Below, piece by piece: positions 2,428 to 30,181 of a stretch of DNA of 64,000 nucleotides. Location of the stretch: assembly GCA_049430665.1 (NCBI GenBank), contig JBMTCG010000001.1, forward strand, positions 41,742-105,741, written 5' to 3'. Every line of letters starts with the position of its first letter. Position 1 is the stretch's first letter. The stretch comes from Flavobacteriales bacterium. Lineage in GTDB: Bacteria; Bacteroidota; Bacteroidia; Flavobacteriales_C; GCA-002722245. The notes beneath the pieces were generated by a model, which was given only the letters and a program-made list of their open reading frames with translations, did no database searches and was not told the DNA's origin. Both the position numbers and the translations under genes were made by a program.

Positions 2428-2636
2428 TGTTAAGCACGCAAATATTTTACTTGTTGTTTATTGCTGTTACGTGGTTTGGTAGCTATTCGTATGTGCAGAA
2501 GCAGATTATGCCGATACCTAAATTGCAAAGTATTTTTAAGGTGCAATGGCAAAAAACAGTAGCGACGTATTTGCTGTCATTAATTTTAGCACTGGCGATT
2601 ACTCAGTTGGCGATTTATAGCACGAAGTTTTTTTAA
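2379..2636 (+). CDS. small hydrophobic ORF, hypothetical
   Basis: 85-aa ORF with two hydrophobic segments that overlaps the M23 gene end. There is no homology I can name, so it may be spurious. Confidence 0.2.
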   Translation: MVEWNAVESGVTYEFLMLSTQIFYLLFIAVTWFGSYSYVQKQIMPIPKLQSIFKVQWQKTVATYLLSLILALAITQLAIYSTKFF

Positions 2637-2641
2637 GTAAA

Positions 2642-2741
2642 GGACAATAGTTCCTTCGGGGTACCTCAGGATGACAAACTGGGTAAGAGCTACCTTTAAG
2701 AGTGGTTGTCATCCTGAGGTACCCCGAAGGAACTATTGTCC
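2642..2741. repeat. perfect 36-bp inverted repeat (GGACAATAGTTCCTTCGGGGTACCTCAGGATGACAA / reverse complement) with 28-nt spacer; palindromic interspersed element, copy 1
   Basis: Arms at 2642-2677 and 2706-2741 are exact reverse complements. The element sits between convergent gene ends (2636 and 2753), so it likely also acts as a bidirectional terminator hairpin. A related copy is at 57207-57300. Confidence 0.8.
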
Positions 2742-2752
2742 TATACGTTAAT

Positions 2753-5071
2753 TTAAGGCGCTATTGTCTCAGGAATGGAATCTATTATAATATTCTCCGC
2801 TCCCACCGAATCAATTTCTACCACCACAGTATCCATTTTTGGAGCTTTCATTCTGCAGTTGTGTGGCACATCAATAGGGAAAGGCTCTTTAGGGAAAGGA
2901 GTAGGTTTTAGTTTGCTTTTCTTATCGGCAAATGCTTTTTGCATAAACAAACCAAAAATTGGCAAGGCGGTTTTCATACCTTCACCCGTTGCCGAGTTTT
3001 TAAAGTGTACACAACGGTCTTCCGCACCCACCCAAGTTCCACCAATCAATCCGGTGGTTACACCAACATACCAACCATCGGAATAGTTGTTTGAAGTCCC
3101 GGTTTTACCGCCCATTTGTGCGTTGTTGCCAAACAGAGCATATTGAAATAAAGCTTGCGATGTACCATTGTATTCTTCCACAGTTCCTCTTAGCATATAC
3201 GACATCAACCAAGCGGTTTCCTCTGTTAATGCTCTTTCTTGGGTAGAATTGAATCGTGCTATTTCTTCTCCTTTTTGATTCACGATGTGTGTAACCAAAA
3301 TAGGTTTAATTCTAAATCCGCCGTTGATGAAAGTCGCGTATGCAGTGGTTAATTCCAAGAGGTTAACATCATTGGTTCCTAAACCGATAGAAGGTACTGC
3401 CATTAACGGACTCTCAATTCCGCATTTTTTGGCGGTTTGGGCAACGTTATCCGGACCGCATTGTAGGGTTAATTGCACCGCTATGCTGTTAATAGAATTA
3501 GCCATGGCTCTGCGCAATGTAAGCGTATCGCCCGAGAAATGTCGGCTTGCATTTTTAGGTTCCCAAACGTGATGCACACCATCTTCATCGTATTCGTGAC
3601 GAACATAGCGGTCTATTCTTGTATCACATGGTCCGTTGCCTTGCTCGAAAGCTGTTGCATAAACAAAAGGCTTAAAGGTAGAACCCGGCTGACGTTTAGA
3701 TTGTGTGATATGGTCGAATTTCATGATTTTGTAGTTCCAGCCACCCACCCATGTTTTGATGTGTCCGTTTTTCGGGTCGAGAGTGAAGAAACCACAACGC
3801 AACATTTTTTTGTAATGCGCCAATGAATCGTAAGAACTCATCATCTTTTTGGTGAAGCCAGCATCGTGTGTAAATATTTCGCAAAGGTGAGGTTTGCGTA
3901 AGAAATATTGAATGGTATCTTCATTGTCTTCCCAGCGTTTTTTAAGTGCACGATACACATCTGTTTGTTTGATAGCATTTTCTAAATAGCCTGGTATCTC
4001 TTGTTTTTTGGCATCAACCCAAGGATTTTGACCAGCCCATTGCGCATCAAATTTACCTTGTAATGATTTCATGTGTTCTTGAACTGCTTCTTGCGCGTGC
4101 ATTTGCAAATTCAAATCAATGGTGGTGTAAATTTTTAATCCGTCGCTGTAAATATCATAACCGTTATCGCTACACCATTCTTCTAGTTCGCGCGCAACTG
4201 CGGCACGAACGTAGGGTACTTTGCAATCTTCTGGGTTTTCAACGTGATAATCTAGAGTAATAGGTTTGTCAATGGCTTTAGCGTATTCTTTATCGGTAAT
4301 TACGCCATGTTTTTTCATCAACGATAAAACAACATTTCTTCTTTCCAAAGATTTTTCGGGATGTAAAACCGGATTGTAAGTAGTGGTAGCTTTAAGCATA
4401 CCAATTAAAACAGCCGATTCATCGGCCGTTAAATCTTTTGGTTTTTTATTGAAATAGGTTTTAGCGGCAGTATTGATACCAAAGGCATTGCTGCCAAAAT
4501 CTACTGTGTTCATGTACAACAACAAGATTTCTTCTTTGCTGTAATTTTCTTCCAAACGTTTGGCCACCATCCATTCTTTAACCTTCACATTCACAGTGCT
4601 AATGCCTGGAATGTAGCTCAATAAACCTTTGTTTACTTTACGCATTTTAAAGATATTTTTGGCCAGCTGCATGGTAATGGTACTACTACCTCTTTTATCT
4701 CCTTTGATCATGTACCACAAAATGGCAATATTGGCTTTCCAGTCGATGCCGGTGTGCTCGTAAAAACGCACATCTTCGGTAGCTACCAAACCTTTGTGAA
4801 AAAGCGGATTGATGTCCTTATATCCTACAGAAGAGCGATTTTCACGAAAAAACTTGCCAATAACCTGACCGTCTTCAGCATAAATAACAGATGCAACAGG
4901 CAACTTAGGGTCTTTCAATTCTTTCACCGAAGGCATATTTCCCATTAACCATAGGAAATTGTGTTGAACAACTAAGTATAGAAATATGATGGTGAGAATA
5001 GGGTAGCGATAGCGTTTTTTCTTCCAAAGATAGATTCCGGCACTTTTAACTTTCTCCCAAATTTTCTTCAT
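2753..5071 (-). CDS. mrcA: penicillin-binding protein 1A (class A PBP: GT51 transglycosylase + transpeptidase)
   Basis: Transglycosylase motifs (ATEDVRFYEHTGID; GSSTITMQLAKN). Transpeptidase SxxK (QPGSTFKPFVYATA), plus SxN and KTG motifs (KTGTS). Confidence 0.85.
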   Translation of the reverse strand: MKKIWEKVKSAGIYLWKKKRYRYPILTIIFLYLVVQHNFLWLMGNMPSVKELKDPKLPVASVIYAEDGQVIGKFFRENRSSVGYKDINPLFHKGLVATEDVRFYEHTGIDWKANIAILWYMIKGDKRGSSTITMQLAKNIFKMRKVNKGLLSYIPGISTVNVKVKEWMVAKRLEENYSKEEILLLYMNTVDFGSNAFGINTAAKTYFNKKPKDLTADESAVLIGMLKATTTYNPVLHPEKSLERRNVVLSLMKKHGVITDKEYAKAIDKPITLDYHVENPEDCKVPYVRAAVARELEEWCSDNGYDIYSDGLKIYTTIDLNLQMHAQEAVQEHMKSLQGKFDAQWAGQNPWVDAKKQEIPGYLENAIKQTDVYRALKKRWEDNEDTIQYFLRKPHLCEIFTHDAGFTKKMMSSYDSLAHYKKMLRCGFFTLDPKNGHIKTWVGGWNYKIMKFDHITQSKRQPGSTFKPFVYATAFEQGNGPCDTRIDRYVRHEYDEDGVHHVWEPKNASRHFSGDTLTLRRAMANSINSIAVQLTLQCGPDNVAQTAKKCGIESPLMAVPSIGLGTNDVNLLELTTAYATFINGGFRIKPILVTHIVNQKGEEIARFNSTQERALTEETAWLMSYMLRGTVEEYNGTSQALFQYALFGNNAQMGGKTGTSNNYSDGWYVGVTTGLIGGTWVGAEDRCVHFKNSATGEGMKTALPIFGLFMQKAFADKKSKLKPTPFPKEPFPIDVPHNCRMKAPKMDTVVVEIDSVGAENIIIDSIPETIAP

Positions 5072-5076
5072 GATGA

Positions 5077-6267
5077 TTATTTAAGTAATCCAAGGGCAAT
5101 GTAAGCCATAAGTCCCATACCCGTTTCTAAAGCACTTTCGTCGATATCGAAAGTAGAAGTATGTATGCCCGAAGTAATTCCTTTGTTGGCATTTCTAACG
5201 CCTAAGCGGTAGAAACAAGAAGGCATTACTTGCGAGTAAAAGGCAAAATCTTCAGAGGTCATTCTTAGGTCTAATTCCTCCACGTTTTCTTTGCCCAAAT
5301 AGTCATCGGCCAAAGCCCATGATTTAACGGTAGTATTTTCTTCGTTTACCAAGAAAGGATATCCTTTTTGAATGTCGAAATCAACGCTGCCACCCATTCC
5401 TTCAGCCACGCTATTGGCCAATTTAAACATGATATCGTGCGCTTTCACCCTCCATTCTTCGTCCATTGTTCTGAATGTTCCTTCCATCTTTACAATATCG
5501 GGCACCACATTGGTAACGCCCAAACCTTCAATTCTTCCGAAAGAAAGAACAGATGGAATGATAGGAGAATTATGGCGACTCACTACTTGCTGCATGGCAA
5601 CAATCATGTGAGAAGCAATTAAAATAGGGTCGATATTGTTGTGAGGCATAGCGCCGTGTCCGCCTTTACCTTTAACAGTAACATAAATTTCATCGCAGCT
5701 TGCCATGTACATTCCTCGGCGAAAACCTACTTTTCCAGCATCCATAGAAGGGAAGACATGCTGCCCAATAATCAATTCTGCATCGGGATTTTTAAGTGCT
5801 CCTTCTTTAATCATTAAGGAAGCACCGCCCGGCAATACTTCTTCACCTGGCTGAAAAATCAACTTCACGGTACCTTCAAACTGATCTTTTAGCGCATTCA
5901 ATATTTTTGCTGTACCCAACAACGAAGAGGTGTGCACATCGTGTCCGCAAGCATGCATTACCCCAGGATTTGTTGAGCAATACGATACTTCATTCTCTTC
6001 TAAAATAGGAAGAGCGTCCATATCGGCGCGCAATGCAATTACTTTTTTACTCGGATTTTTACCTTCAATATGCGCCACAATTCCTGTTTCTACGTAACCT
6101 GCAGTAAAAGGAATGCCATTGTCTGTAAGGAATTGCTGAATGTATTTAGATGTTTTGTATTCTTTAAAAGACAACTCTGGATTGGCGTGCAAATACCTAC
6201 GCACCTGAATAATATCTTTCAGGTAATCTTTTGCTAAACCGTGTACTTTGTCTTTCATTAGGGGCAA
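5077..6267 (-). CDS. M20 family amidohydrolase (N-acyl-L-amino acid amidohydrolase-like)
   Basis: MHACGHDVHTS and DMDALPI motifs, typical of M20D metal-binding sites, in a roughly 396-aa protein. Confidence 0.75.
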   Translation of the reverse strand: MPLMKDKVHGLAKDYLKDIIQVRRYLHANPELSFKEYKTSKYIQQFLTDNGIPFTAGYVETGIVAHIEGKNPSKKVIALRADMDALPILEENEVSYCSTNPGVMHACGHDVHTSSLLGTAKILNALKDQFEGTVKLIFQPGEEVLPGGASLMIKEGALKNPDAELIIGQHVFPSMDAGKVGFRRGMYMASCDEIYVTVKGKGGHGAMPHNNIDPILIASHMIVAMQQVVSRHNSPIIPSVLSFGRIEGLGVTNVVPDIVKMEGTFRTMDEEWRVKAHDIMFKLANSVAEGMGGSVDFDIQKGYPFLVNEENTTVKSWALADDYLGKENVEELDLRMTSEDFAFYSQVMPSCFYRLGVRNANKGITSGIHTSTFDIDESALETGMGLMAYIALGLLK

Positions 6268-6537
6268 AGATATAAAAATTAGGTTAGGGCAGAAAGGGCT
6301 TTGTGAAATGTAAAAAGCACTAAAAAATGATTTTCAGTTTTTAGCGGTACTGATTAATATTACGTCGATTTACTTGACAAGGGGCTAAAAAAAAAAGTAA
6401 ATTCTACTACTTGCACTACTACTGCTATGGCGTCAACACATTTATTTGAATTAATTCACTCTCTTTCTCCTACTGAGAAAGGGTAAATTAAAAAAACCGC
6501 TTTTTCATCCTCAAACGGTGAAGAGAAATCGTACATA

Positions 6538-7368
6538 TTGTTGTTCGATGCTCTCGCCAATCAAGAGGTGTATGATGAAGACAAAATCATCAAGAAGTTT
6601 AAGGGCGCAGCATTCATCAAAAATTTATCGAAAAGCAAGAATCATCTGTACCATGTTATTTTAAAGCGATTAGCACAATACCACGAAGAAAATATCATTG
6701 AGATTAAAATTAAGGGTTTAGTGAATCAGGCTACCATTTTGTATAAGAAAGGATTGTACGAACATGCAGTGATTCACTACGAAAAGGCCTTGCGTTTAGC
6801 TTTAGACGCAGAAGAATTGGAAGTGGCCTTAGAAATTTATACCTGTCTTTTAGACATCTACTTTGTGGGAAGTATGGGCATAAAATTTCCTTATGAAGAG
6901 GAAATGAAAGTGCTTTCAAAAAAACTGAACAATGAACATTTGATAGCGCAACTGCACACCAAAATTGCAGAGAAAATGTTCTCCGACGATTTTAATTCTG
7001 AGCCAGAACAGGTGCAAAGTATTCACGATATTTTGAATGCGCCTTTGCTTCAAAAAATTAACGATAACGATAGTTTTTTTGCACAGTGGGGCAAGATGTG
7101 CATTCATACCCACAGCTACTATCTGCTAAGTCAGCATGAAGATGCCGATGCTATGAAAGCAAAGCAACTGGAGTTTTTGCGTACCCACCCAGCCATGACC
7201 AGTAAAACGCCCATGCGCTATGTAAAACATTTGGCCAACATGATCAATGGCAAATTAAATACTTGCCATTATGATGACATTCCTTCTCTTTTAGAAGAAT
7301 TGAAAAACTTTCAAAGCAACGAAAATTTGTTAGAGCATATTAAACCTTTACAGCTCTCGGTATATTAG
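6538..7368 (+). CDS. helical-repeat (TPR-like) hypothetical protein, N-terminal part; same frame as the next ORF, separated by one TAG
   Basis: ORF with a TTG start. The stop TAG at 7366-7368 lies in the same frame as the ORF starting at 7378. Confidence 0.45.
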   Translation: MLFDALANQEVYDEDKIIKKFKGAAFIKNLSKSKNHLYHVILKRLAQYHEENIIEIKIKGLVNQATILYKKGLYEHAVIHYEKALRLALDAEELEVALEIYTCLLDIYFVGSMGIKFPYEEEMKVLSKKLNNEHLIAQLHTKIAEKMFSDDFNSEPEQVQSIHDILNAPLLQKINDNDSFFAQWGKMCIHTHSYYLLSQHEDADAMKAKQLEFLRTHPAMTSKTPMRYVKHLANMINGKLNTCHYDDIPSLLEELKNFQSNENLLEHIKPLQLSVY

Positions 7369-7377
7369 ATTCAATCG

Positions 7378-7962
7378 TTGTCTTTATATACTCAAATTAA
7401 TCAACTCGACAAGGCTTATGCTCTCTTAGATGAAAGTATATTGTGGTTCGAAAAGAATGAACATTTGGTATCAGACTACTTTAAAATCATCTTTTACGAC
7501 TCAGTTTTCTTAGTGTATTTTATGAAAGGTGAGTTTAAAAAATGCATTCCTTGGATGAATAAAATAGCACATTCGAAAACGCCTTTCAGAAAAGAGTTGC
7601 GCTTGAGTTTAAAACTAAATTTATTGCTGTTACATTTTGAGCTTAAGAATTACGAATTGATTAGCTATCAAATCAAATCGTTGTACCGTGAAATACTAAA
7701 ACAAGAAAACAATCAAGAATCAACAAAATACATTCTACGCTGGTTTCAAGATTGTTTGAAAGACGCTAATAACGAAGCGTCACTTAAGAAATCAGCTGAG
7801 GAAATTAAATATCGTTTGCATAAAATGACTGAAAGTGGCGAGTGGAAACTGCTACTAGAAATGCGCTTATTTCACGCATGGTTGGAATCGAAAATCAATA
7901 AAAAGTCGGTTGCTGAAAACTACGCTAAAGAATATTTATTAGAATTAGCAGAACCAATCTAA
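7378..7962 (+). CDS. helical-repeat hypothetical protein, C-terminal part of a possibly interrupted gene
   Basis: Frame-1 ORF beginning 9 nt after the in-frame TAG of the previous ORF, with the same composition and repeat style. Confidence 0.4.
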   Translation: MSLYTQINQLDKAYALLDESILWFEKNEHLVSDYFKIIFYDSVFLVYFMKGEFKKCIPWMNKIAHSKTPFRKELRLSLKLNLLLLHFELKNYELISYQIKSLYREILKQENNQESTKYILRWFQDCLKDANNEASLKKSAEEIKYRLHKMTESGEWKLLLEMRLFHAWLESKINKKSVAENYAKEYLLELAEPI

Positions 7963-8010
7963 AGAGATACTAAACAAAAAAGTCCTACCGATTTCACTCG
8001 AAAGGACTTC

Positions 8011-8032
8011 TGCTCTCCCTCTTGGACTTGAA
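8011..8032. repeat. att-site direct repeat (distal copy of the tRNA-Asn 3' end)
   Basis: Exact 22-nt match to 12726-12747. It lacks the upstream tRNA body, so it is a partial tRNA 3' end only. Confidence 0.7.
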
Positions 8033-8337
8033 GCCTAAGAGGAAATGCTGTAATATTAAGTCATTTAGAACTATCAACTTTTAGGGACACCTAATTTGTC
8101 ACCTAATTCTTAAAAAGAACCATATAGCAAATATACAGTTTTCAGTTTTTGAACACTAAAATTCCTCTACAAATTAAAGCCTGTATGGAGAAATATATTT
8201 GACTTCTCCTTACTAAAGTATTTTCATCGTTATCATCAATTGGATAAATTCCTGAATATATCCATTCATTGTATGAGTACCTGAACCATCTGCGCGTACA
8301 GATATTTTCACTCCGTTTTAAGGGATTATTCCGATTT

Positions 8338-9375
8338 TTATTGCAAAATAATCTTTTTTACTTCAACCAAATTACCTGAACCGTCTATAATATTAACAAA
8401 ATAAGTTCCAGTACTAAATGTATTAAGGTTAACTGAATATGACGGCTGACTGATTGTTTGTTGGTAAACCTCTTGATTCAATGTATTCAAAATTTTAATT
8501 TGGTAGCCATTGCTAGTTGAGTTGGCAATAGAAATATTTAACTGGTCATTAGTAGGGTTCGGGAAAATCTTAATGTTATTGGAATAACTAATAGGATTGA
8601 ATCCTGTTACATTCAGATTGATGACTAATGTATCCGTAACCGTCAAGTTTTGTAAGCATAGACTTTCATTGTACAATGCGGTTACTTCATTAGCGGTTAT
8701 TGCTCGGTCATAAATTCGATAATCATCAAGCGTTCCATCAAAATGCCCACCAGCTGGCCACACTTGGTGCGCACCAATAAATAAATCTGTACCATTGGTA
8801 ATTGGAGCCATTGCGCTACCTGATTGACTACCAGTTTGAGATACTAGTACATTGTCAATGTAAATTTTGAATTGTGAAGCCATTACAGAGCCAGCAGCCC
8901 CATCGTAAACGCCAACAACATGATGCCAGCTTCCATCGCGATATGTTCCATCTGTCATTTGGCCAATTGATTTTGCAGGACCATCATTGTTGAAAAGAAC
9001 TCTTCCATCATAAAACCCGCCTGTTATTGAGTGAAGATGTATTGTTAAACCATCTTGATTGTTTAACCCGCGTCCGCTAATTATTATACCGCCATAAGTG
9101 GTTTTAAACCAAGCAGAAATAGTATAAGAAGTCACATTGGTTTGTTGCAGACTTACTTGAATGGTGTCGTTGCCGTCAAACTGATAAGCATGATTGGGTC
9201 TTCCAAATCTGTCTGCTGTAAGTACTGCCCCTTTAACAGTTCCGTTGTGTCCGTTACCTGAGTTGTCACTAGCATTTCCCGTAAACGACCAATAAGCCAC
9301 CAATCCATTAGTTGGTATTTGAGCAATTGATGTCATTGCCAAAACCATTAGTAAAAAAGTAAACGTTTTTTTCAT
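8338..9375 (-). CDS. secreted LamG/concanavalin-like jelly-roll domain protein with T9SS C-terminal sorting domain
   Basis: N-terminal signal peptide. The central region is typical of the LamG-like (Laminin_G_3) fold. The C-terminal roughly 80 aa (KIFPNPTNDQLNI...GTYFVNIIDGSGN...KKIILQ) match the type A T9SS sorting domain pattern. Confidence 0.65.
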   Translation of the reverse strand: MKKTFTFLLMVLAMTSIAQIPTNGLVAYWSFTGNASDNSGNGHNGTVKGAVLTADRFGRPNHAYQFDGNDTIQVSLQQTNVTSYTISAWFKTTYGGIIISGRGLNNQDGLTIHLHSITGGFYDGRVLFNNDGPAKSIGQMTDGTYRDGSWHHVVGVYDGAAGSVMASQFKIYIDNVLVSQTGSQSGSAMAPITNGTDLFIGAHQVWPAGGHFDGTLDDYRIYDRAITANEVTALYNESLCLQNLTVTDTLVINLNVTGFNPISYSNNIKIFPNPTNDQLNISIANSTSNGYQIKILNTLNQEVYQQTISQPSYSVNLNTFSTGTYFVNIIDGSGNLVEVKKIILQ

Positions 9376-9412
9376 AACTGATTTTTAAAGTTTTGGGAAA
9401 TATAAGGAAAAA

Positions 9413-9461
9413 TCTCCATATATGGAGAAAACAATTCTTTTGCATCTCTCCATTTTAGGAG
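9413..9461. promoter_or_regulatory. two TCTCC-N6-GGAGA palindromic operator-like sites in the divergent promoter region (9413-9428 perfect palindrome TCTCCATATATGGAGA; 9446-9461 TCTCCATTTTAGGAGA)
   Basis: Seen directly. The second site ends 2 nt before the XRE gene ATG at 9463. A related GGAGA-N13-TCTCC arrangement with a TATGGAGAAA half-site is at 8188-8210. Confidence 0.5.
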
Positions 9462-9462
9462 A

Positions 9463-9753
9463 ATGAAAAAATCTCTAAAGACAAGTCAATCTAAGAAGCC
9501 ACGACGAATACTAAAGTCTGATGAGAGAAACGATTTCAACAAAAAAATAGGTGACTATATTCGTGAGAAGCGAGAAGAAGCGAAATTAACACAAACCCAA
9601 TTAGCGGATAAACTTTATGATGGTCAAATGGAACCCAAAGGAGTATGGAAAATAGAAAATGGCTTGTACACCCCTAATCTTTATGTTATTGCGGAAATAG
9701 CAAAGGTTTTTAATCTTTCGTTATCAGAATTCCTAAAAGATTTCAAGTATTAA
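9463..9753 (+). CDS. XRE-family helix-turn-helix transcriptional regulator
   Basis: The LTQTQLADKLYDGQ...VWKIENG segment is a classic Cro/C1-type HTH. It is a small, 96-aa protein. Confidence 0.65.
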   Translation: MKKSLKTSQSKKPRRILKSDERNDFNKKIGDYIREKREEAKLTQTQLADKLYDGQMEPKGVWKIENGLYTPNLYVIAEIAKVFNLSLSEFLKDFKY

Positions 9754-9857
9754 CACCTCATTATACTTCCCTTTTTACCCTTACCGCCTCCTTTAAGCCC
9801 CCCTATATCAAATAGCTAAAACAAAAAAACAAGCGCAATTACCGCGTTTATTACTAT

Positions 9858-10718
9858 GTGCTACCATGCAGCACAATATTCAAAGGCATTTATGTCCGAA
9901 TCGCCAGCAATTTTTTCGGTTTTCAATTTCACTTGTGTCATTTGACACATATCATAAATAAAGAAATTTTACTCGGAGAAGTCCCATTTGACACACTTTC
10001 ACCTTTTGGTCAGTATTTATATTCAAATAACAACTTGTATTACCGAAGGTGCGTCCAGATGAAAGCATACATGACAACAAAAGAATTTCTTGCGAAAGCA
10101 AATACCAGCAGGTCATCATTAATCAGATTAACAAAAGATTTAATGAAGAAAAAAGCTGAATGGAAAATAACTTATATCAAAGAAACAGCTAAAGGAAACT
10201 TGTTTCACCACTCATTACTTTCTCAATTCATTCCCGAATGGTGTTTAAATAAGTTAGTCGAATACGAAGAACATTTTGATGACATGAGAAATTTAGTAGC
10301 TGTATTGGAAGACTCCAATTCATTGCCATATATATTATATAAGATGAAATGGGATAGTTTCATTACGGTTGCTTATGCCAAAACTTATAAGCCGGAAAGA
10401 TGCTTTATCATGATGTCAGAAGTCGCCAACATACTAGAAGAAAAATGCGGGAAGGGAATCGAATTCCGTATGTTTTTTACTACAGAATCATTTTCCCATC
10501 GGGAAGGACACCACAATCATTTTTTCCTTCGGGTAGGAAACCATGAAAGAAGAGAATACGCATTAGATTTTATCAAGGATTACTTTGCTGGTGACCGAGT
10601 AGATATTAAATCATACGACCAAGAAAAAGCTGGCCTATTTTATATTGCCAAAAGTGGTTTGCAGGGAACCGAATGGGACATAAGAGGGAATAACTTAGGT
10701 AATGCCCAAACCAAATGA
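9858..10718 (+). CDS. hypothetical element protein with HUH-like motif (HHNHFFL) followed by Y..K residues; probable true start at ATG 10059
   Basis: The ORF track start of 9858 is probably too early: MKAYMTTKEF at 10059 follows a promoter-like region with TTTGACACA repeats. The His cluster plus downstream Tyr resembles rolling-circle Rep/relaxase HUH motifs, but only weakly. Confidence 0.35.
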   Translation: MLPCSTIFKGIYVRIASNFFGFQFHLCHLTHIINKEILLGEVPFDTLSPFGQYLYSNNNLYYRRCVQMKAYMTTKEFLAKANTSRSSLIRLTKDLMKKKAEWKITYIKETAKGNLFHHSLLSQFIPEWCLNKLVEYEEHFDDMRNLVAVLEDSNSLPYILYKMKWDSFITVAYAKTYKPERCFIMMSEVANILEEKCGKGIEFRMFFTTESFSHREGHHNHFFLRVGNHERREYALDFIKDYFAGDRVDIKSYDQEKAGLFYIAKSGLQGTEWDIRGNNLGNAQTK

Positions 10719-10848
10719 AAAAGGTAATACTAACCAAAAAGCAAATCTTAATGGTAATTAATGCTATGAAATCCGGTGAAATCAAAGTCCCAATTTATAT
10801 GAGCGGAGCTACTTTTAATGCTGTTTTCAATACTAAAAGCAACAAAAT

Positions 10849-10876
10849 GTTGTGTCCGCCGCAGGCGGATCACAAC
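10849..10876. terminator. GC-rich hairpin between convergent element genes (bidirectional terminator candidate)
   Basis: GTTGTGTCCGCC-GCAG-GCGGATCACAAC forms an 11-bp stem with one bulge. It has T-rich flanks on both strands and lies between the gene ends at 10718 and 10905. Confidence 0.4.
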
Positions 10877-10904
10877 ACCGTTTATTGATTATATCTCTGC
10901 AAAA

Positions 10905-11177
10905 TCAAATAGCGTTAAAATAGTATTCAATTGATTTTCGAGAATAATACCAAGCACCATTTAGCTTCTTTGATTTAATTTTTTGATTAACTCTTAAAGA
11001 CTTTAGCGTGTTCGCGGAGCAACTTAAAATCTCACGAGCTTCACCACCTTTTACCCATTCCTTATTATTAGTTTGTGTTTTTTCGGACAACATTTGTCCG
11101 ATTTCGTGTAAGAGTTCTGTTTTTAAACTGCGGATGATTAATTGTAAATCGTCATGTGATACTAAATTTAGGTTCAT
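10905..11177 (-). CDS. excisionase-family (MerR-like HTH_17) DNA-binding protein
   Basis: The C-terminal segment EWVKGGEAREILSCSANTLKSLRVNQKIKSKKLNGAWYYSRKSIEYYF matches the excisionase/HTH_17 pattern. It lies immediately upstream of the integrase on the same strand. Confidence 0.55.
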   Translation of the reverse strand: MNLNLVSHDDLQLIIRSLKTELLHEIGQMLSEKTQTNNKEWVKGGEAREILSCSANTLKSLRVNQKIKSKKLNGAWYYSRKSIEYYFNAI

Positions 11178-11213
11178 TATTCATGTTGTTTAACCTATTG
11201 TTATTGTGGGTGG

Positions 11214-12611
11214 CTATGAAGCCAGTTTTATGATTTTAATTTTTTTGGAGAGGGCTTTTCCTTTTTTCAATTTCTTTTCAAGTTGCGCCATATCATTTTG
11301 AATTTTGGCATTACCAATTTTGGCATATATTTTTGTTGTCTTTAAATCCCTATGTGACAAAATTTCGCTTACTGTTTCAATAGGGACGCCATTTGCTAAA
11401 GCAACAGTTGTCGCAAATTTGTGACGTGCTGCGTGGTAACTTATTTCTTTGTTGATACCACATAAAGCTGCGATTTTCTTTAAATAATCATTGGTGGTTT
11501 GGTGACTATAAATTGGAAATATTTTATTCTTTTCGATAGAAATAGGGTGATTTTTATACTTCTCTACAATTCGTTTTGCTTCAGGGAGTAATGGCAAATT
11601 AATCTTCTCGTCTGTTTTTTTTCGATTGGTTACAATCCAGTATTTACCATCAATTCCACGTATTATTTCACTACTTTGAAGTTTACTAACATCTGCGAAT
11701 GCTAATGCTGTATAGCACGAAAACACGAATACATCACGAACAAGCGAAAGGCTTGGATTACTCAAATTTTCTTGTTCTAATTTTAGTAACTCTTCAGAAT
11801 TTAAAAAAGGACGTTGGGTGTCTTTGAAAACACCATTCCAATGTTCTGACAAATTATTGTTGAGCCATTTATTTCTATACGCCATACTAAGTATTTTCTT
11901 TAAGGCTTTACAATACCCTATGGCAGTGTTAAACTGGTGTTTGTATTCTGTTCTTAAAAAGTATTCAAAATCGCCAATGATAGTTGTAGAAAGGTCATTT
12001 AAAGCAATATCCTTAGTAAGGAAACGAAAAGAAATAAAGGCTTTAAGCATACGCAAGGCTATTTCATGTTTTTCAAGTCGTGATTCGGAAACCTTGCCAA
12101 TGCTTACCTGTTCTTTGAAATCTTTATTATGTAATTCGTATGCTTCTATTAAGGTATATTGTTTTTCACCAATGCCTTTTAGCAGATTTACAATCATTTC
12201 GGGAGTAGCCGTTTTTCCAGCCAATTGTAAAGTATTATAATGCTTTCGCACCTCATTAGATTTACTAGACAAAAAGCAATTCAATATTTGAGCCTCTTCT
12301 TTATTGCCTTTAGCTTTTTGGGCTTTAGAATCCCACTGAGAAGGTAAAATCCATTGTTTAGTACTTAGGTCTGAACGATTGCCGTTAATTGTTATGCGCA
12401 AATAGATAGGCGTTGCGCCCGTTTGTCTGTTCTTCTTCGCACCGCGAAGGTAAAATAAGGTTGAAACCATTCTTTGAAACCATTTTTTTTCTTTGTTATT
12501 GTTTTTCATTAGTATAAACAATTTAAAATTAATAATCAAGTGCCTGTTGCAGATTTCTTGGAGAAATAGAAGAAAATAGGTGTCCCTGTTTTGCTGGGTT
12601 AATAAGGACAC
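11214..12611 (-). CDS. tyrosine-type site-specific integrase (probable true start ATG near 12509, MKNNNKEKKWF)
   Basis: The N-terminus is Bacteroidota integrase-like (ATPIYLRITINGNRSDLSTKQW). The C-terminal catalytic region HAARHKFATT...LSHRDLKTTKIYAKI carries the RHR-Y-type catalytic residues. It sits next to tRNA-Asn. Confidence 0.8.
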   Translation of the reverse strand: MSLLTQQNRDTYFLLFLQEICNRHLIINFKLFILMKNNNKEKKWFQRMVSTLFYLRGAKKNRQTGATPIYLRITINGNRSDLSTKQWILPSQWDSKAQKAKGNKEEAQILNCFLSSKSNEVRKHYNTLQLAGKTATPEMIVNLLKGIGEKQYTLIEAYELHNKDFKEQVSIGKVSESRLEKHEIALRMLKAFISFRFLTKDIALNDLSTTIIGDFEYFLRTEYKHQFNTAIGYCKALKKILSMAYRNKWLNNNLSEHWNGVFKDTQRPFLNSEELLKLEQENLSNPSLSLVRDVFVFSCYTALAFADVSKLQSSEIIRGIDGKYWIVTNRKKTDEKINLPLLPEAKRIVEKYKNHPISIEKNKIFPIYSHQTTNDYLKKIAALCGINKEISYHAARHKFATTVALANGVPIETVSEILSHRDLKTTKIYAKIGNAKIQNDMAQLEKKLKKGKALSKKIKIIKLAS

Positions 12612-12660
12612 CGAAAAGGCACCCTACTTTTGATAGTTTTTGATGTTTTTTGCTGGGGTA

Positions 12661-12699
12661 TTAAAACAAAAAACCGTGCAACCTTCTATTGTTGCACGG
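12661..12699 (-). terminator. intrinsic terminator downstream of tRNA-Asn
   Basis: CCGTGCAAC-CTTCTATT-GTTGCACGG is a 9-bp stem. On the minus strand it is followed by a U-run (complement of AAAAAACAAAA at 12661-12673). Confidence 0.55.
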
Positions 12700-12727
12700 C
12701 TTTGACCACATTTGCTCTCTGGTCTTG

Positions 12728-12801
12728 CTCTCCCTCTTGGACTTGAACCAAGGACCCTCTGATTAACAGTCAGATGCTCTAACCAGCTGAGCTAAGGAAG
12801 A
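12728..12801 (-). tRNA. tRNA-Asn (anticodon GTT)
   Basis: Manual fold of the minus strand gives acceptor TCTTCCT/AGGGAGA (one G-U pair), D-arm GCTC-AGCTGGTTA-GAGC, anticodon arm TCTGA-CTGTTAA-TCAGA (GTT), variable loop GGGTC, T-arm CTTGG-TTCAAGT-CCAAG and discriminator G. CCA is not encoded. A 5' UCC start occurs in E. coli tRNA-Asn too. Confidence 0.8.
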
Positions 12802-12890
12802 ATGGTTTTCCGAAAAACGGAGTGCAATAATAGTTCAAAGTTTGGAATTATGCAATATATTAGCGCCTACAAACGCAAAAAAAATTTATC

Positions 12891-13820
12891 ATGAGCTTAG
12901 TTATCGTTGGAACAGTAGCATTTGACGCTATAGAAACCCCTTTTGGAAAAACAGACAAAATCGTTGGTGGATCAGCTACTTACGTGGGTTTGTCGGCTGC
13001 AAAACTCGGACAAAAACCAAAATTAATTGCAGTGGTTGGAGATGATTTTCCGAAGACTGCCATTGATATGTTGAAGCAAAATAATTTCGATTTAGAAGGT
13101 TTAGAAATCAAAAAAGGAGAAAAAACTTTCTTCTGGTCGGGTAAATATCATTTCGACATGAACTCTCGCGATACTTTGGTTACTGAATTAAATGTGTTGG
13201 CTGGTTTCGACCCTGAAATGCCCGCTTCTTACCAAGATTGCGAATACTTAATGTTGGGAAATTTAGCTCCTGCCATTCAACAAAAAGTGATTAAAAGCAT
13301 GACTAAGCGTCCGAAATTAATCGTTATGGATACCATGAACTTTTGGATGGACATCGCATTAGAAGAGTTGAAACAAACTATTTCTATGGTAGATGTGGTT
13401 ACAGTAAACGACGAAGAAGCGCGCCAATTAACAGGCGAATATTCATTGATTAATGCGGCACACAAAATATTAACCATGGGTCCTAAATACCTTATCATTA
13501 AAAAAGGTGAGCACGGCGCATTATTGTTCGATAAAGAAAGAATGTTCTTCGCTCCTGCCCTTCCATTGGCCGATGTAGTTGACCCTACTGGTGCTGGTGA
13601 TACTTTTGCTGGTGGATTCATTGGCTATATCGCTAAAACGGGTGATATTTCTTTCGATAATTTCAAACGTGCCGTAATTCACGGTTCGGCTTTGGCGTCT
13701 TTCTGTGTGCAAGATTTTGGAACTAAAAGAATGGAAACGTTAACTTACAGTGAAGTTCGCGATAGAATAGATAAGTTTGTGAGCCTAACAAGATTTGAAT
13801 TAGAAGCAGTAGCTTATTAA
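12891..13820 (+). CDS. PfkB-family carbohydrate kinase (ribokinase-like)
   Basis: The DPTGAGDTFAGGF motif is the PfkB signature 2. Size is about 309 aa. Confidence 0.7.
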   Translation: MSLVIVGTVAFDAIETPFGKTDKIVGGSATYVGLSAAKLGQKPKLIAVVGDDFPKTAIDMLKQNNFDLEGLEIKKGEKTFFWSGKYHFDMNSRDTLVTELNVLAGFDPEMPASYQDCEYLMLGNLAPAIQQKVIKSMTKRPKLIVMDTMNFWMDIALEELKQTISMVDVVTVNDEEARQLTGEYSLINAAHKILTMGPKYLIIKKGEHGALLFDKERMFFAPALPLADVVDPTGAGDTFAGGFIGYIAKTGDISFDNFKRAVIHGSALASFCVQDFGTKRMETLTYSEVRDRIDKFVSLTRFELEAVAY

Positions 13821-28861: not shown

Positions 28862-30181
28862 ATGGGTTGCAGCGGATGCGAAACAGGAAGAGGTAATACG
28901 AATGGCGTACCTACGGGGTGCGGCAATAAGGGTCAGTGTGCTGCTCAAGGATGCAATAAATTCAGCGTTTTCGATTGGTTAAGCAATATCTCGGTTCCTT
29001 CTTCAGAAGAGCCTTACTACGGTGTGGAAGTGCGATTTAAAAACGACAGAAAAAGTTATTTCTGGAATGTAGATAAATTGCCTTTGGCCATTGGAGATGC
29101 AGTAGCGGTGGAAGCTTCACCAGGTCACGATATAGGTACTGTTTCTTTAACTGGCGAACTCGTGAAATTGCAAATGAGCAAGCGTAATTTCCCAGAGAGC
29201 GAAATGAAAAAGCTCTATCGTAAAGCCAAACAAACAGATATTGAAAAATGGAATGAAGCTATTTCTTTAGAAAAAGCAACATTGCAGAAAGCCAGAAAAC
29301 TAGCCATCGACCTCGGTTTAGAGATGAAAATTGGCGATGTGGAATACCAAGGCGATCGTTCAAAAGCTACGTTTTTCTATACGGCTAATGGCCGCGTAGA
29401 TTTCCGTCAGCTCATTAAGCAATATGCTGAGCATTTTCGCATTCGTGTGGAAATGCGCCAAATTGGTGCCCGACAAGAGGCATCTAAATTGGGTGGCGTT
29501 GGTTCATGCGGAAGAGAATTGTGTTGCTCTACATGGTTAACCGATTTTAGAACGGTGAATACTTCCGCCGCAAGATATCAGCAGTTGTCGTTGAACCCTC
29601 AAAAGTTGGCCGGACAATGTGGTAAACTAAAATGCTGTTTGAATTATGAATTGGATTCTTACCTCGATGCAGTGAAAGAATTCCCTCAGGTTAACACCAA
29701 TTTGTTCACCAAAAAAGGAGAAGCTTATCAGGTTAAAACAGATATCTTCAAAAGAATCTTGTACTACGTTTATCGTGAAGATCCATCTGTTTTTCACGCA
29801 GTACCAGTGAGTCGCGTGAAAGAAATTATCGCCATGAATCGTGCGGGTAATCATCCTGAAGATTTATTGTTGATTCCTGTTGCTGATAAAACAACCAAGA
29901 AACCAGAACCCGACTATGCAAATGTAGTGGGTGAAGATGACTTAACACGTTTCGACCGCAAACGTGGTGGTGGCAACGACAACAGAAATAGAAATCGTGG
30001 TGGTGGAGGTGGTAACAACAATGGCAATCGCCGTCCGCAAGGGCAGGGTCAGCCGCAAGGCCCCAACCCAAATCGTCCGCGACCAAACAATAACGGTCCG
30101 CGACCGAACAACAACAGACCAAGACCAAACAACAACAATGGTCAGCGACCAAACAACAATCAACCGCCAAAGCAAGTTTAA
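28862..30181 (+). CDS. PSP1 C-terminal domain protein (RicT/YaaT-like) with Cys-rich N-terminus and low-complexity Asn/Pro/Arg-rich C-terminal tail
   Basis: The conserved PSP1 segment GSCGRELCCSTWLTDF and an N-terminal CxxC cluster. The tail reads RPRPNNNGPRPNNNRPRPNNNNGQRPNNN and is encoded by a DNA repeat at about 30060-30170. Confidence 0.7.
   Translation: MGCSGCETGRGNTNGVPTGCGNKGQCAAQGCNKFSVFDWLSNISVPSSEEPYYGVEVRFKNDRKSYFWNVDKLPLAIGDAVAVEASPGHDIGTVSLTGELVKLQMSKRNFPESEMKKLYRKAKQTDIEKWNEAISLEKATLQKARKLAIDLGLEMKIGDVEYQGDRSKATFFYTANGRVDFRQLIKQYAEHFRIRVEMRQIGARQEASKLGGVGSCGRELCCSTWLTDFRTVNTSAARYQQLSLNPQKLAGQCGKLKCCLNYELDSYLDAVKEFPQVNTNLFTKKGEAYQVKTDIFKRILYYVYREDPSVFHAVPVSRVKEIIAMNRAGNHPEDLLLIPVADKTTKKPEPDYANVVGEDDLTRFDRKRGGGNDNRNRNRGGGGGNNNGNRRPQGQGQPQGPNPNRPRPNNNGPRPNNNRPRPNNNNGQRPNNNQPPKQV

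Follow-up and report, generated by a model that had tools for sequence, protein, structure and literature searches.

The integrated element and its genes

The window analysed here, meaning the whole 64-kb stretch of DNA, contains a 4.7-kb element integrated at a tRNA-Asn gene (12727-12801, minus strand). Its left end is marked by an exact 22-nt direct repeat, TGCTCTCCCTCTTGGACTTGAA (distal att, 8011..8032), the other copy of which lies at the 3' end of tRNA-Asn (proximal att, 12726..12747), and the same repeat is present in sister loci. Beside the tRNA lies a gene for a tyrosine integrase with Arm-DNA-bind_5, SAM-like and catalytic domains (11214..12509, minus strand); its open reading frame extends to 12611, with the ATG at 12509 as the likely start (431 aa, like the integrase of the sister element). 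With an integrase beside the tRNA and a repeat at the far end, this is a tRNA-integrated element with a tyrosine recombinase, and the same chromosomal site holds different islands in two of the related loci (L001 and L011).

The element further encodes an excisionase-like HTH_17 protein of 90 aa (10905..11177, minus strand; PF12728, 1.9e-6), an XRE/HTH_3 regulator of 96 aa (9463..9753, plus strand) and, downstream of the regulator gene, a 219-aa protein (10059..10718, plus strand) that is probably an HUH rolling-circle Rep-like endonuclease. A 57-aa open reading frame is also carried. Neither this frame nor the 219-aa protein matched a family in Pfam, PHROGs or NCBIfam, and the Rep-like protein found no match among the plasmids of PLSDB. 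Divergent to the regulator gene lies a cargo gene (8338..9375, minus strand) for a 345-aa protein with a signal peptide, a LamG/concanavalin-like domain (Laminin_G_3, 1e-21) and a T9SS C-terminal sorting domain (Por_Secre_tail, 4e-12). No phage genes and no R-M genes were found in this element, and an Rfam search over 7900-12900 at E<=1 returned the tRNA as its sole meaningful match.

Paired palindromes upstream of the regulator gene

The intergenic region between the cargo and regulator genes (9376-9462) holds two palindromes, which we treat as putative operators. The distal one, O1 (9413..9428), reads TCTCCATATATGGAGA, a perfect palindrome of 16 bp whose half-site centres are separated by 11 bp, whilst the proximal one, O2 (9447..9462), reads TCTCCATTTTAGGAGA and has the same half-sites around an asymmetric, T-rich centre. 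They are separated by an 18-nt gap (9429..9446) that contains a candidate -7 box for the regulator gene, giving a centre-to-centre distance of 34 bp. The final base of O2 adjoins the ATG of the regulator gene at 9463, a distance of 0 nt. The first-pass annotation had already reported a perfect 16-mer at 9413-9428 and a second palindrome with the same half-sites abutting this ATG. Both descriptions agree with what we find, apart from the coordinates of the second palindrome (9446-9461), which were 1 nt too low, and the spacing, which is 18 rather than 17 nt.

Exact matches to TCTCC-N6-GGAGA occur in the 64-kb window, on either strand, only at O1 and O2, and none arose in 100 dinucleotide-preserving shuffles; allowing one mismatch added a single, unrelated match at 29706. 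No operator-like site lies upstream of the gene for the 219-aa protein or at the integrase and excisionase genes, which are 1.2 kb off and on the other strand. Neither operator sequence was found in the searchable literature.

The regulator protein

The regulator matches Pfam HTH_3 (PF01381) with an E-value of 7.1e-10 and a score of 39.2 bits (cutoff 23), and PHROG repressor families match it with E-values down to 2e-12. Searched with the family profile, its best solved sequence relative is the N-terminal domain of lambda cI (E 2.5e-5; residues 24-90 against lambda 13-76). An AF2 model (pLDDT 82.6) predicts five helices, at 20-39, 44-54, 58-65, 73-82 and 87-90, preceded by an N-terminal arm of about 19 aa that is low-confidence in the model, basic, and carries a conserved KKPRRILK; the five-helix fold with its helix 2-turn-helix 3 motif is present in this model, and the recognition helix reads KGVWKIENG. 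Structural neighbours found with Foldseek, at a probability of 1.00 but an E-value of only about 3e-3, were the ComR HTH, C.BclI, ClgR, DdrO and lambda cI, with C.AhdI also among them. The 96-aa protein has no second domain, neither an S24/LexA-like C-terminal domain for dimerisation and self-cleavage nor an extra oligomerisation domain.

An identical regulator sequence has been deposited from a Flavobacteriales MAG. A phage origin was considered and set aside, with no relative of the regulator in the IMG/VR viral contigs searched, by protein and by operator DNA pattern, or in the GenBank phage records searched.

Conservation of both sites among relatives of the regulator

Relatives of the regulator were gathered by protein similarity alone, so that the set is unbiased toward loci that bear the palindromes. 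A single-sequence search returned 6 clusters and a profile search 13 clusters at E<1e-30, among 5.8 billion sequences, and the regulator family is therefore rare. Scans of genome, metagenome and viral contigs contributed one new locus, L011, and otherwise copies of known ones. The genomic context was retrieved for every locus gathered. The operator-bearing set comprises the window together with L001-5, L006/7, L008, L014, L011, L009/10, L016/17, L018, L021, L022/23 and L024.

Both sites, the 18-nt gap and the contact of O2 with the ATG recur in all 11 related lineages, whose regulators share 62-79% identity with the window protein. The common layout runs from TCTCC-N6-GGAGA at -50..-35 (O1) through the gap to the second site at -16..-1 (O2) and then the start codon. 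At L021 the gene caller had run the open reading frame upstream through O2, and the ATG that abuts O2 fits the N-terminus of the family. Across the roughly 69 kb of loci that bear the operators, no further TCTCC-N6-GGAGA was found at up to one mismatch. Pairwise identity reaches 98% in the half-sites of O1 and 95% in those of O2, and 78-79% in the central 6 bp of the two sites, against 49% in the gap, the length of which is invariant, 49% in the 30 nt to the left of O1 and 46% at third codon positions of the regulator gene. In 8 of 12 lineages the palindrome of O1 is perfect, and in three the right half of O2 is degenerate (GGCGA, GGATA). Four half-site substitutions were seen in all (GGCGA twice, GAAGA and GGATA), every one of them in a right half and none in a left half.

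Since the half-sites are conserved where flank, gap and third codon positions have fallen to 46-49% identity, a neutral background, the half-sites, the length of the gap and the distance from O2 to the ATG are under purifying selection. The comparison shows that O1 and O2 are non-random and that selection strongly preserves their sequence, spacing and position. The absence of the palindromes from orthologous elements that keep the regulator, named beforehand in the first-pass annotation as one of two observations that would speak against its proposal, is the opposite of what was found, with both sites retained in 11 of 11 lineages. One relative, L015, has a replaced N-terminus and no operators; its contig, 625 bp long and covered 0.76x, may be chimeric.

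Linkage to the regulator and change of the recognition helix

The regulator gene is the sole gene that constantly accompanies O1 and O2, and the divergent and downstream genes vary between loci. The divergent partner is a homologous LamG gene in the window, L001, L006, L008, L014 and L018, a lipoprotein retaining only the LamG signal peptide in L011, and an unrelated protein in L009, L016, L021 and L022. L011 is a whole island without integrase or excisionase and yet has both O1 and O2, and no integrase or HTH_17 gene is in view at L006, L016, L018 or L022 as far as their contigs reach.

The distant relatives L019 and L020 (P0012 and P0013; 57-59% identical by BLASTP) have no TCTCC/GGAGA sites. 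In the alignment, helix 3 of all operator-bearing proteins contains KG[VLI]WK[IL]ENG and their helix 2 begins with TQT, whereas the L019 and L020 proteins have KGVSRIENG and TQN instead, a change from WK to SR within the recognition helix. Exactly at the O1 position (-50..-35), these two loci have a different, imperfect palindrome, TGACCTAATTAGATGA, with no convincing palindrome at the O2 position, and their SR-type regulators lie divergent to Type III R-M operons (Mod/Res genes). Across the loci compared, these patterns show that O1 and O2 are linked to the regulator family and that loss of the sites coincides with a change of the recognition helix. We regard this joint change of helix and site as the strongest in-silico argument for the XRE protein as the binder.

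Candidate promoters

In Bacteroidetes, the main promoter element TAnnTTTG occupies -12..-5, and there are no Shine-Dalgarno sequences in the mRNAs (PMC6847099, PMC9723704). The GGAGA of O2, which ends 0 nt from the ATG, was for these reasons discarded as a Shine-Dalgarno sequence (PMC6847099). A scan for sigma-70-type promoters, a type wrong for this phylum, was likewise discarded, with 23 found against 19 expected and no enrichment.

For the divergent LamG gene, a candidate -7 box, TATATTTC, lies on the minus strand at 9397..9404, 8 nt from the edge of O1, and fits 5 of the 6 specified positions; in L001, L016, L018, L021 and L022 the minus-strand box, 6-8 nt from O1, is a perfect TAnnTTTG, and in most lineages a candidate -7 box for the divergent gene adjoins O1. 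The window box predicts a transcription start at about 9392 and a 17-nt leader, and O1 would then cover about -21 to -36 of the candidate promoter, a repressing position.

For the regulator gene two placements come into question, and neither is secure. A box within the gap, TTCTTTTG (9435-9442, plus strand), fits TAnnTTTG at 5 of its 6 specified positions and would place the transcription start near 9447, the first base of O2, so that O2 would form the entire 16-nt leader; a gap-located box of this quality occurs in only 7 of 13 loci. Alternatively, a box inside O2, CATTTTAG (9451..9458, plus strand; O2 positions 5-12), fits 4 of 6 positions in the window and would give a leaderless mRNA starting at the A of the ATG (9463). 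O2 positions 5-12 read cAnnTTTG in L016, L018, L021, L022 and L024, exactly those loci without a gap-located box. The O2-internal placement would explain the invariant distances of 0 and 18 nt, whereas the gap-located one would not. Because O2 overlaps the core promoter or the start in either case, binding there would give negative autoregulation.

Proposed control circuit

Conservation, linkage and promoter anatomy together support the view that the XRE protein encoded next to O1 and O2 uses them as its operators. We consider it probable, judging from these sequence patterns, that this protein binds both sites and represses its own gene through O2 and the divergent cargo gene through O1; the binding as such, the stoichiometry of the dimers, the location of the promoters and the direction of regulation are all parts of the model that we infer. 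An XRE dimer would sit on each 16-bp palindrome, since half-site centres 11 bp apart correspond to one helical turn and would let the two HTH units reach successive major grooves, a mode of contact that is established for the family. O2 would span the transcription or translation start region of the regulator gene, at +1..+16 or -16..-1 depending on the -7 box used, so that its occupation would turn the regulator's own gene off, and the protein at O1, beside the divergent -7 box, would repress the gene for the secreted LamG/T9SS protein. The first-pass annotation had proposed an autoregulating Cro/CI-like repressor that also controls the divergent gene. O1 and O2 as its putative operators, kept in 11 of 11 lineages, are in line with the first part of that proposal, and the anatomy of the divergent -7 box supports the second.

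The control region of about 85 bp and the regulator gene travel together as a cassette, which meets different divergent partners in different islands. Read as a portable cassette, it is placed before T9SS-secreted LamG surface proteins, and its sister clade with the altered helix before Type III R-M operons.

Two features sit less easily with this circuit. A distance of 34 bp amounts to about 3.2 helical turns, which would leave the two dimers off the same face of the DNA; with this off-face spacing and no oligomerisation domain, simple cooperative repression leaves the invariant spacing unexplained. In addition, the restriction of deviations to right halves (4 of 4) is unexpected for a symmetric dimer.

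Alternative explanations

Palindromes in such a position could also act as RNA hairpins, O2 as a stem-loop in the 5' untranslated region that occludes the start codon and O1 as a terminator-like hairpin on the minus strand. O1 does fold, at -7.1 kcal/mol (z -3.2 and -2.3), is followed by a minus-strand T-run and is matched by a terminator scan, and the pairing of O2 reaches the AUG, and in flavobacteria RNA structure around the start codon affects translation (PMC6847099). However, the O2 region folds no more stably than its shuffles do (z -0.22), no minus-strand gene lies upstream of O1 to be terminated, and Rfam offered no match. The natural half-site substitutions break a pair in four cases of four, with none compensated, and two copies at a fixed spacing, only one of which could lie in the XRE mRNA, better fit a DNA-binding dimer; we hold the hairpin explanation to be highly improbable. 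Much the same applies to a binder other than the XRE protein, be it a host factor, the element's integrase or its HTH_17 excisionase, with the XRE gene merely adjacent. The element does encode these two further DNA-binding proteins, but the sites follow the XRE gene into islands without integrase or HTH_17 genes (L011 as a whole, and the four partial loci given above) and vanish when its recognition helix differs, whilst candidate integrase sites lie elsewhere, as inverted 15-mers beside both att ends. We see next to no prospect for this explanation either. A third operator near the distal att, suggested by the first-pass annotation on the strength of a related half-site there, is likewise very unlikely. 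The letters are present: the 10-mer TATGGAGAAA (8184-8193) occurs only twice in the 64 kb, here and in O1, and GGAGA (8187-8191) is followed by TCTCC (8205-8209), 155 nt inside the att repeat. The geometry is nevertheless everted, GGAGA-N13-TCTCC rather than TCTCC-N6-GGAGA, and the TCTCC arm lacks the conserved A that follows it elsewhere. Six-base half-sites (TCTCCA/TGGAGA) occur at background frequency, 0.53 per kb over the whole window and 0.63 per kb in those parts of the element that exclude O1 and O2, which puts the related half-site at chance level. Homology to the sister element (91% over 8011-8137) stops at 8137, before the site, and the sister has a 64-aa gene there with no extra half-site within its bounds. 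The same letters can be read instead as an 8-bp minus-strand hairpin, 130 nt past the LamG stop (-10.9 kcal/mol, z -2.8). Being unshared by the sister element, different in geometry and no more frequent than background, the site does not bear out the suggestion of a second regulated point at the element boundary.

A rival that keeps the XRE protein as binder and changes the sign of its action at one site deserves more weight. Here the protein on O1, centred at -42.5, would activate a weak leaderless promoter of its own gene whilst repressing the divergent one, and the weaker O2, centred at -8.5, would shut the gene off at high levels of regulator; from the sequence patterns we think this possible, and short of probable. 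It has a precedent in lambda, where cI at OR2, a site with its centre near -42, activates PRM, and the cI transcript made from PRM has no leader. In its position, O1 would also resemble the distal activating site of C proteins (PMC2632904). The invariance of the 0-nt contact and the 18-nt gap in 11 lineages, despite a neutrally diverged gap sequence, speaks for this rival, as a class II-type activator site combined with leaderless transcription demands a fixed geometry. So does the cAnnTTTG inside O2 in the five loci without a gap box, as does the fact that O2 centres are always T-rich ahead of G and O1 centres ATATAT-like. Of the two sites, the distal one comes closer to perfect symmetry, as in C-protein operators, the mRNAs of which are often leaderless (PMC2632904); C.BclI and C.AhdI are among the structural neighbours of the regulator, and sister-clade regulators adjoin Type III R-M operons. 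Against it stand the O2-internal box of the window, CATTTTAG, which reaches only 4 of 6 positions and has C at the near-invariant T-12, the better box in the gap (5 of 6), a layout that differs from the 35-bp C-box, and the low share of leaderless mRNAs among flavobacterial transcripts, only about 5.5% (PMC9723704). Its fullest form, in which a minimal single-protein switch like lambda PRM and C-protein systems would operate in Bacteroidota, leaderless, with the -7 box in O2, O1 activating and the whole a portable cassette, we find doubtful on these patterns. Repression of both genes by the XRE protein is the reading that we prefer.

Implications

To our knowledge, few transcription-factor sites and almost no regulatory circuits of mobile elements have been characterised in Flavobacteriales. 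For this order, the analysis yields a defined and testable regulator-operator pair with a consensus of two copies of TCTCCA-N4-TGGAGA, 34 bp apart, the proximal copy abutting the ATG. In Bacteroidota genetics the cassette could find use as a compact, repressible pair of promoters, and the natural WK and SR helix variants with their different operators form a ready-made specificity-swap system. Should the leaderless switch prove true, the logic of lambda PRM and C proteins would also hold in a phylum that has another sigma factor and does without Shine-Dalgarno sequences.

Comparison with known systems

By analogy, the regulator and its putative operators would work like an autoregulated divergent control region of the Cro/cI or C-protein type, within the XRE/HTH_3 superfamily. 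The N-terminal domain of lambda cI, like the 434 and P22 repressors and Cro, shares with the regulator a five-helix HTH_3 fold with a basic N-terminal arm. The lambda OR region likewise has dyad-symmetric operators of 16-17 bp that are repeated in a divergent intergenic region; there they overlap both promoters, as O1 and O2 may overlap the candidate ones of the window element, and in lambda, too, the regulator gene begins at the edge of an operator. Full-length lambda cI differs in having a C-terminal domain for oligomerisation and S24 self-cleavage, where the window regulator ends at 96 aa. Lambda also has three operators, 23-24 bp apart, against two that are 34 bp apart in the window element; its divergent partner is a Cro-type antagonist rather than a secreted LamG/T9SS protein; and the candidate promoters of the element are of the Bacteroidetes type (TAnnTTTG).

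ImmR of ICEBs1 is an element-encoded XRE repressor that is autoregulating and acts on a multi-site divergent promoter region. With ImmR-type repressors the window element has in common an XRE-family gene on an integrated element, a divergent promoter region and several sites, here putative. Unlike those systems, it lacks an ImmA-like anti-repressor protease, and its divergent gene is cargo rather than xis or transfer genes.

C proteins such as C.PvuII, C.AhdI, C.Esp1396I and C.BclI are, like the regulator, small HTH_3 proteins that stand alone. Their control is autogenous, they often occur in mobile elements outside R-M contexts, and their operators consist of two palindromic copies upstream of their own gene, the distal copy being nearer to the consensus (PMC2632904), an arrangement that O1 and O2 share. 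The C-box, however, spans 35 bp around a conserved central GTG and lies about 17-18 nt from the ATG (PMC2632904), whereas here the unit measures 50 bp (16+18+16), its gap sequence is unconserved (49%) and its distance to the ATG is 0 nt. In further contrast to C proteins, the window element has no R-M genes; only the SR-type regulators of L019 and L020 adjoin Type III Mod/Res genes. The system is neither a full lambda-type cI, as it lacks both an S24 domain and a Cro partner, nor a canonical C-protein system. Its mechanism, as proposed, is an ordinary, textbook one, and its design is a classic one in a Flavobacteriales family that is itself undescribed.

Islands at the tRNA-Asn site

In related genomes, different islands occupy the same chromosomal tRNA-Asn site (4142-4529 and 9184-9683 in L001, the locus of the sister element, and 10017-10697 in L011, the locus of another regulator relative). 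The att 22-mer is present three times in L001, where the element is flanked by two 300-nt copies, 95% identical to each other, each of which contains a GIY-YIG gene together with a tRNA-like fragment. Such a layout, with three att 22-mers and an element between 300-nt copies, suggests tandem or successive integrations. The L011 island at this site (5275-10440) encodes the XRE-operator cassette, with an RHS-repeat lipoprotein among its other cargo, and lacks integrase and excisionase genes. Its gene divergent from the regulator retained the signal peptide of the LamG gene (MKKSLLFIVLAA) fused to an unrelated lipoprotein, and recombination is therefore placed just inside the cargo gene.

Ends of the window element

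Some 50-140 nt inward of each att end, the window element has an inverted repeat of 15 nt, AGGGACACCTAATTT / AAAATAGGTGTCCCT (8083-8097 and 12573-12587), which the sister element also keeps (L001 4580-4594 and 9031-9045). A recombinase or an excisionase probably binds at these repeats near both att ends. The stretch that the first-pass annotation had tentatively read as a third regulator site near the element boundary (window 8187-8209), located 130 nt 3' of the LamG stop codon, folds on the minus strand as an 8-bp hairpin (GGAGAAGT...ATTTCTCC; -10.9 kcal/mol, z -2.8), with no T-run after it. At window 6538-7962 (+) are two adjoining same-strand ORFs, one of 276 aa that gives TPR matches and one of 194 aa, whereas L001 and L011 each have a single TPR gene (832-857 aa) located elsewhere in this neighbourhood. 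The window pair may represent a split or truncated gene adjoining the element boundary.

Variation among regulator relatives

Among the WK-type proteins, those with the KG[VLI]WK[IL]ENG recognition helix, the sole exception was P0006 (L015; 625-bp contig, coverage 0.76), in which the N-terminal third is replaced and the upstream operators are absent; it is a rearranged copy or else a chimera produced by assembly. For the L021 regulator (251-562), the public gene call begins at an upstream ATG and reads through the operator gap and O2 (MKYFFLHFWR...); family alignment places the true start at the ATG abutting O2, position 281. Convergent to the L022 regulator gene, at 2458-3714 (-), is a gene whose 418-aa product matches both Peptidase_M78 (ImmA-like) and Mrr_cat. 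An ImmA-type anti-repressor protease in this position may be a clue to the way some elements lift repression; the window element has no gene of this type.

In L019 (3889-6318) and L020 (3973-6318), the regulators share 57-59% identity with the window protein and carry SR, not WK, in the recognition helix, and TGACCTAATTAGATGA is common to their upstream regions at -50 to -35. Divergent from both are Type III restriction-modification operons (N6_N4_Mtase and ResIII). This pairing of a regulator with a Type III operon, found here in uncultured bacteria, resembles the layout of C-proteins.
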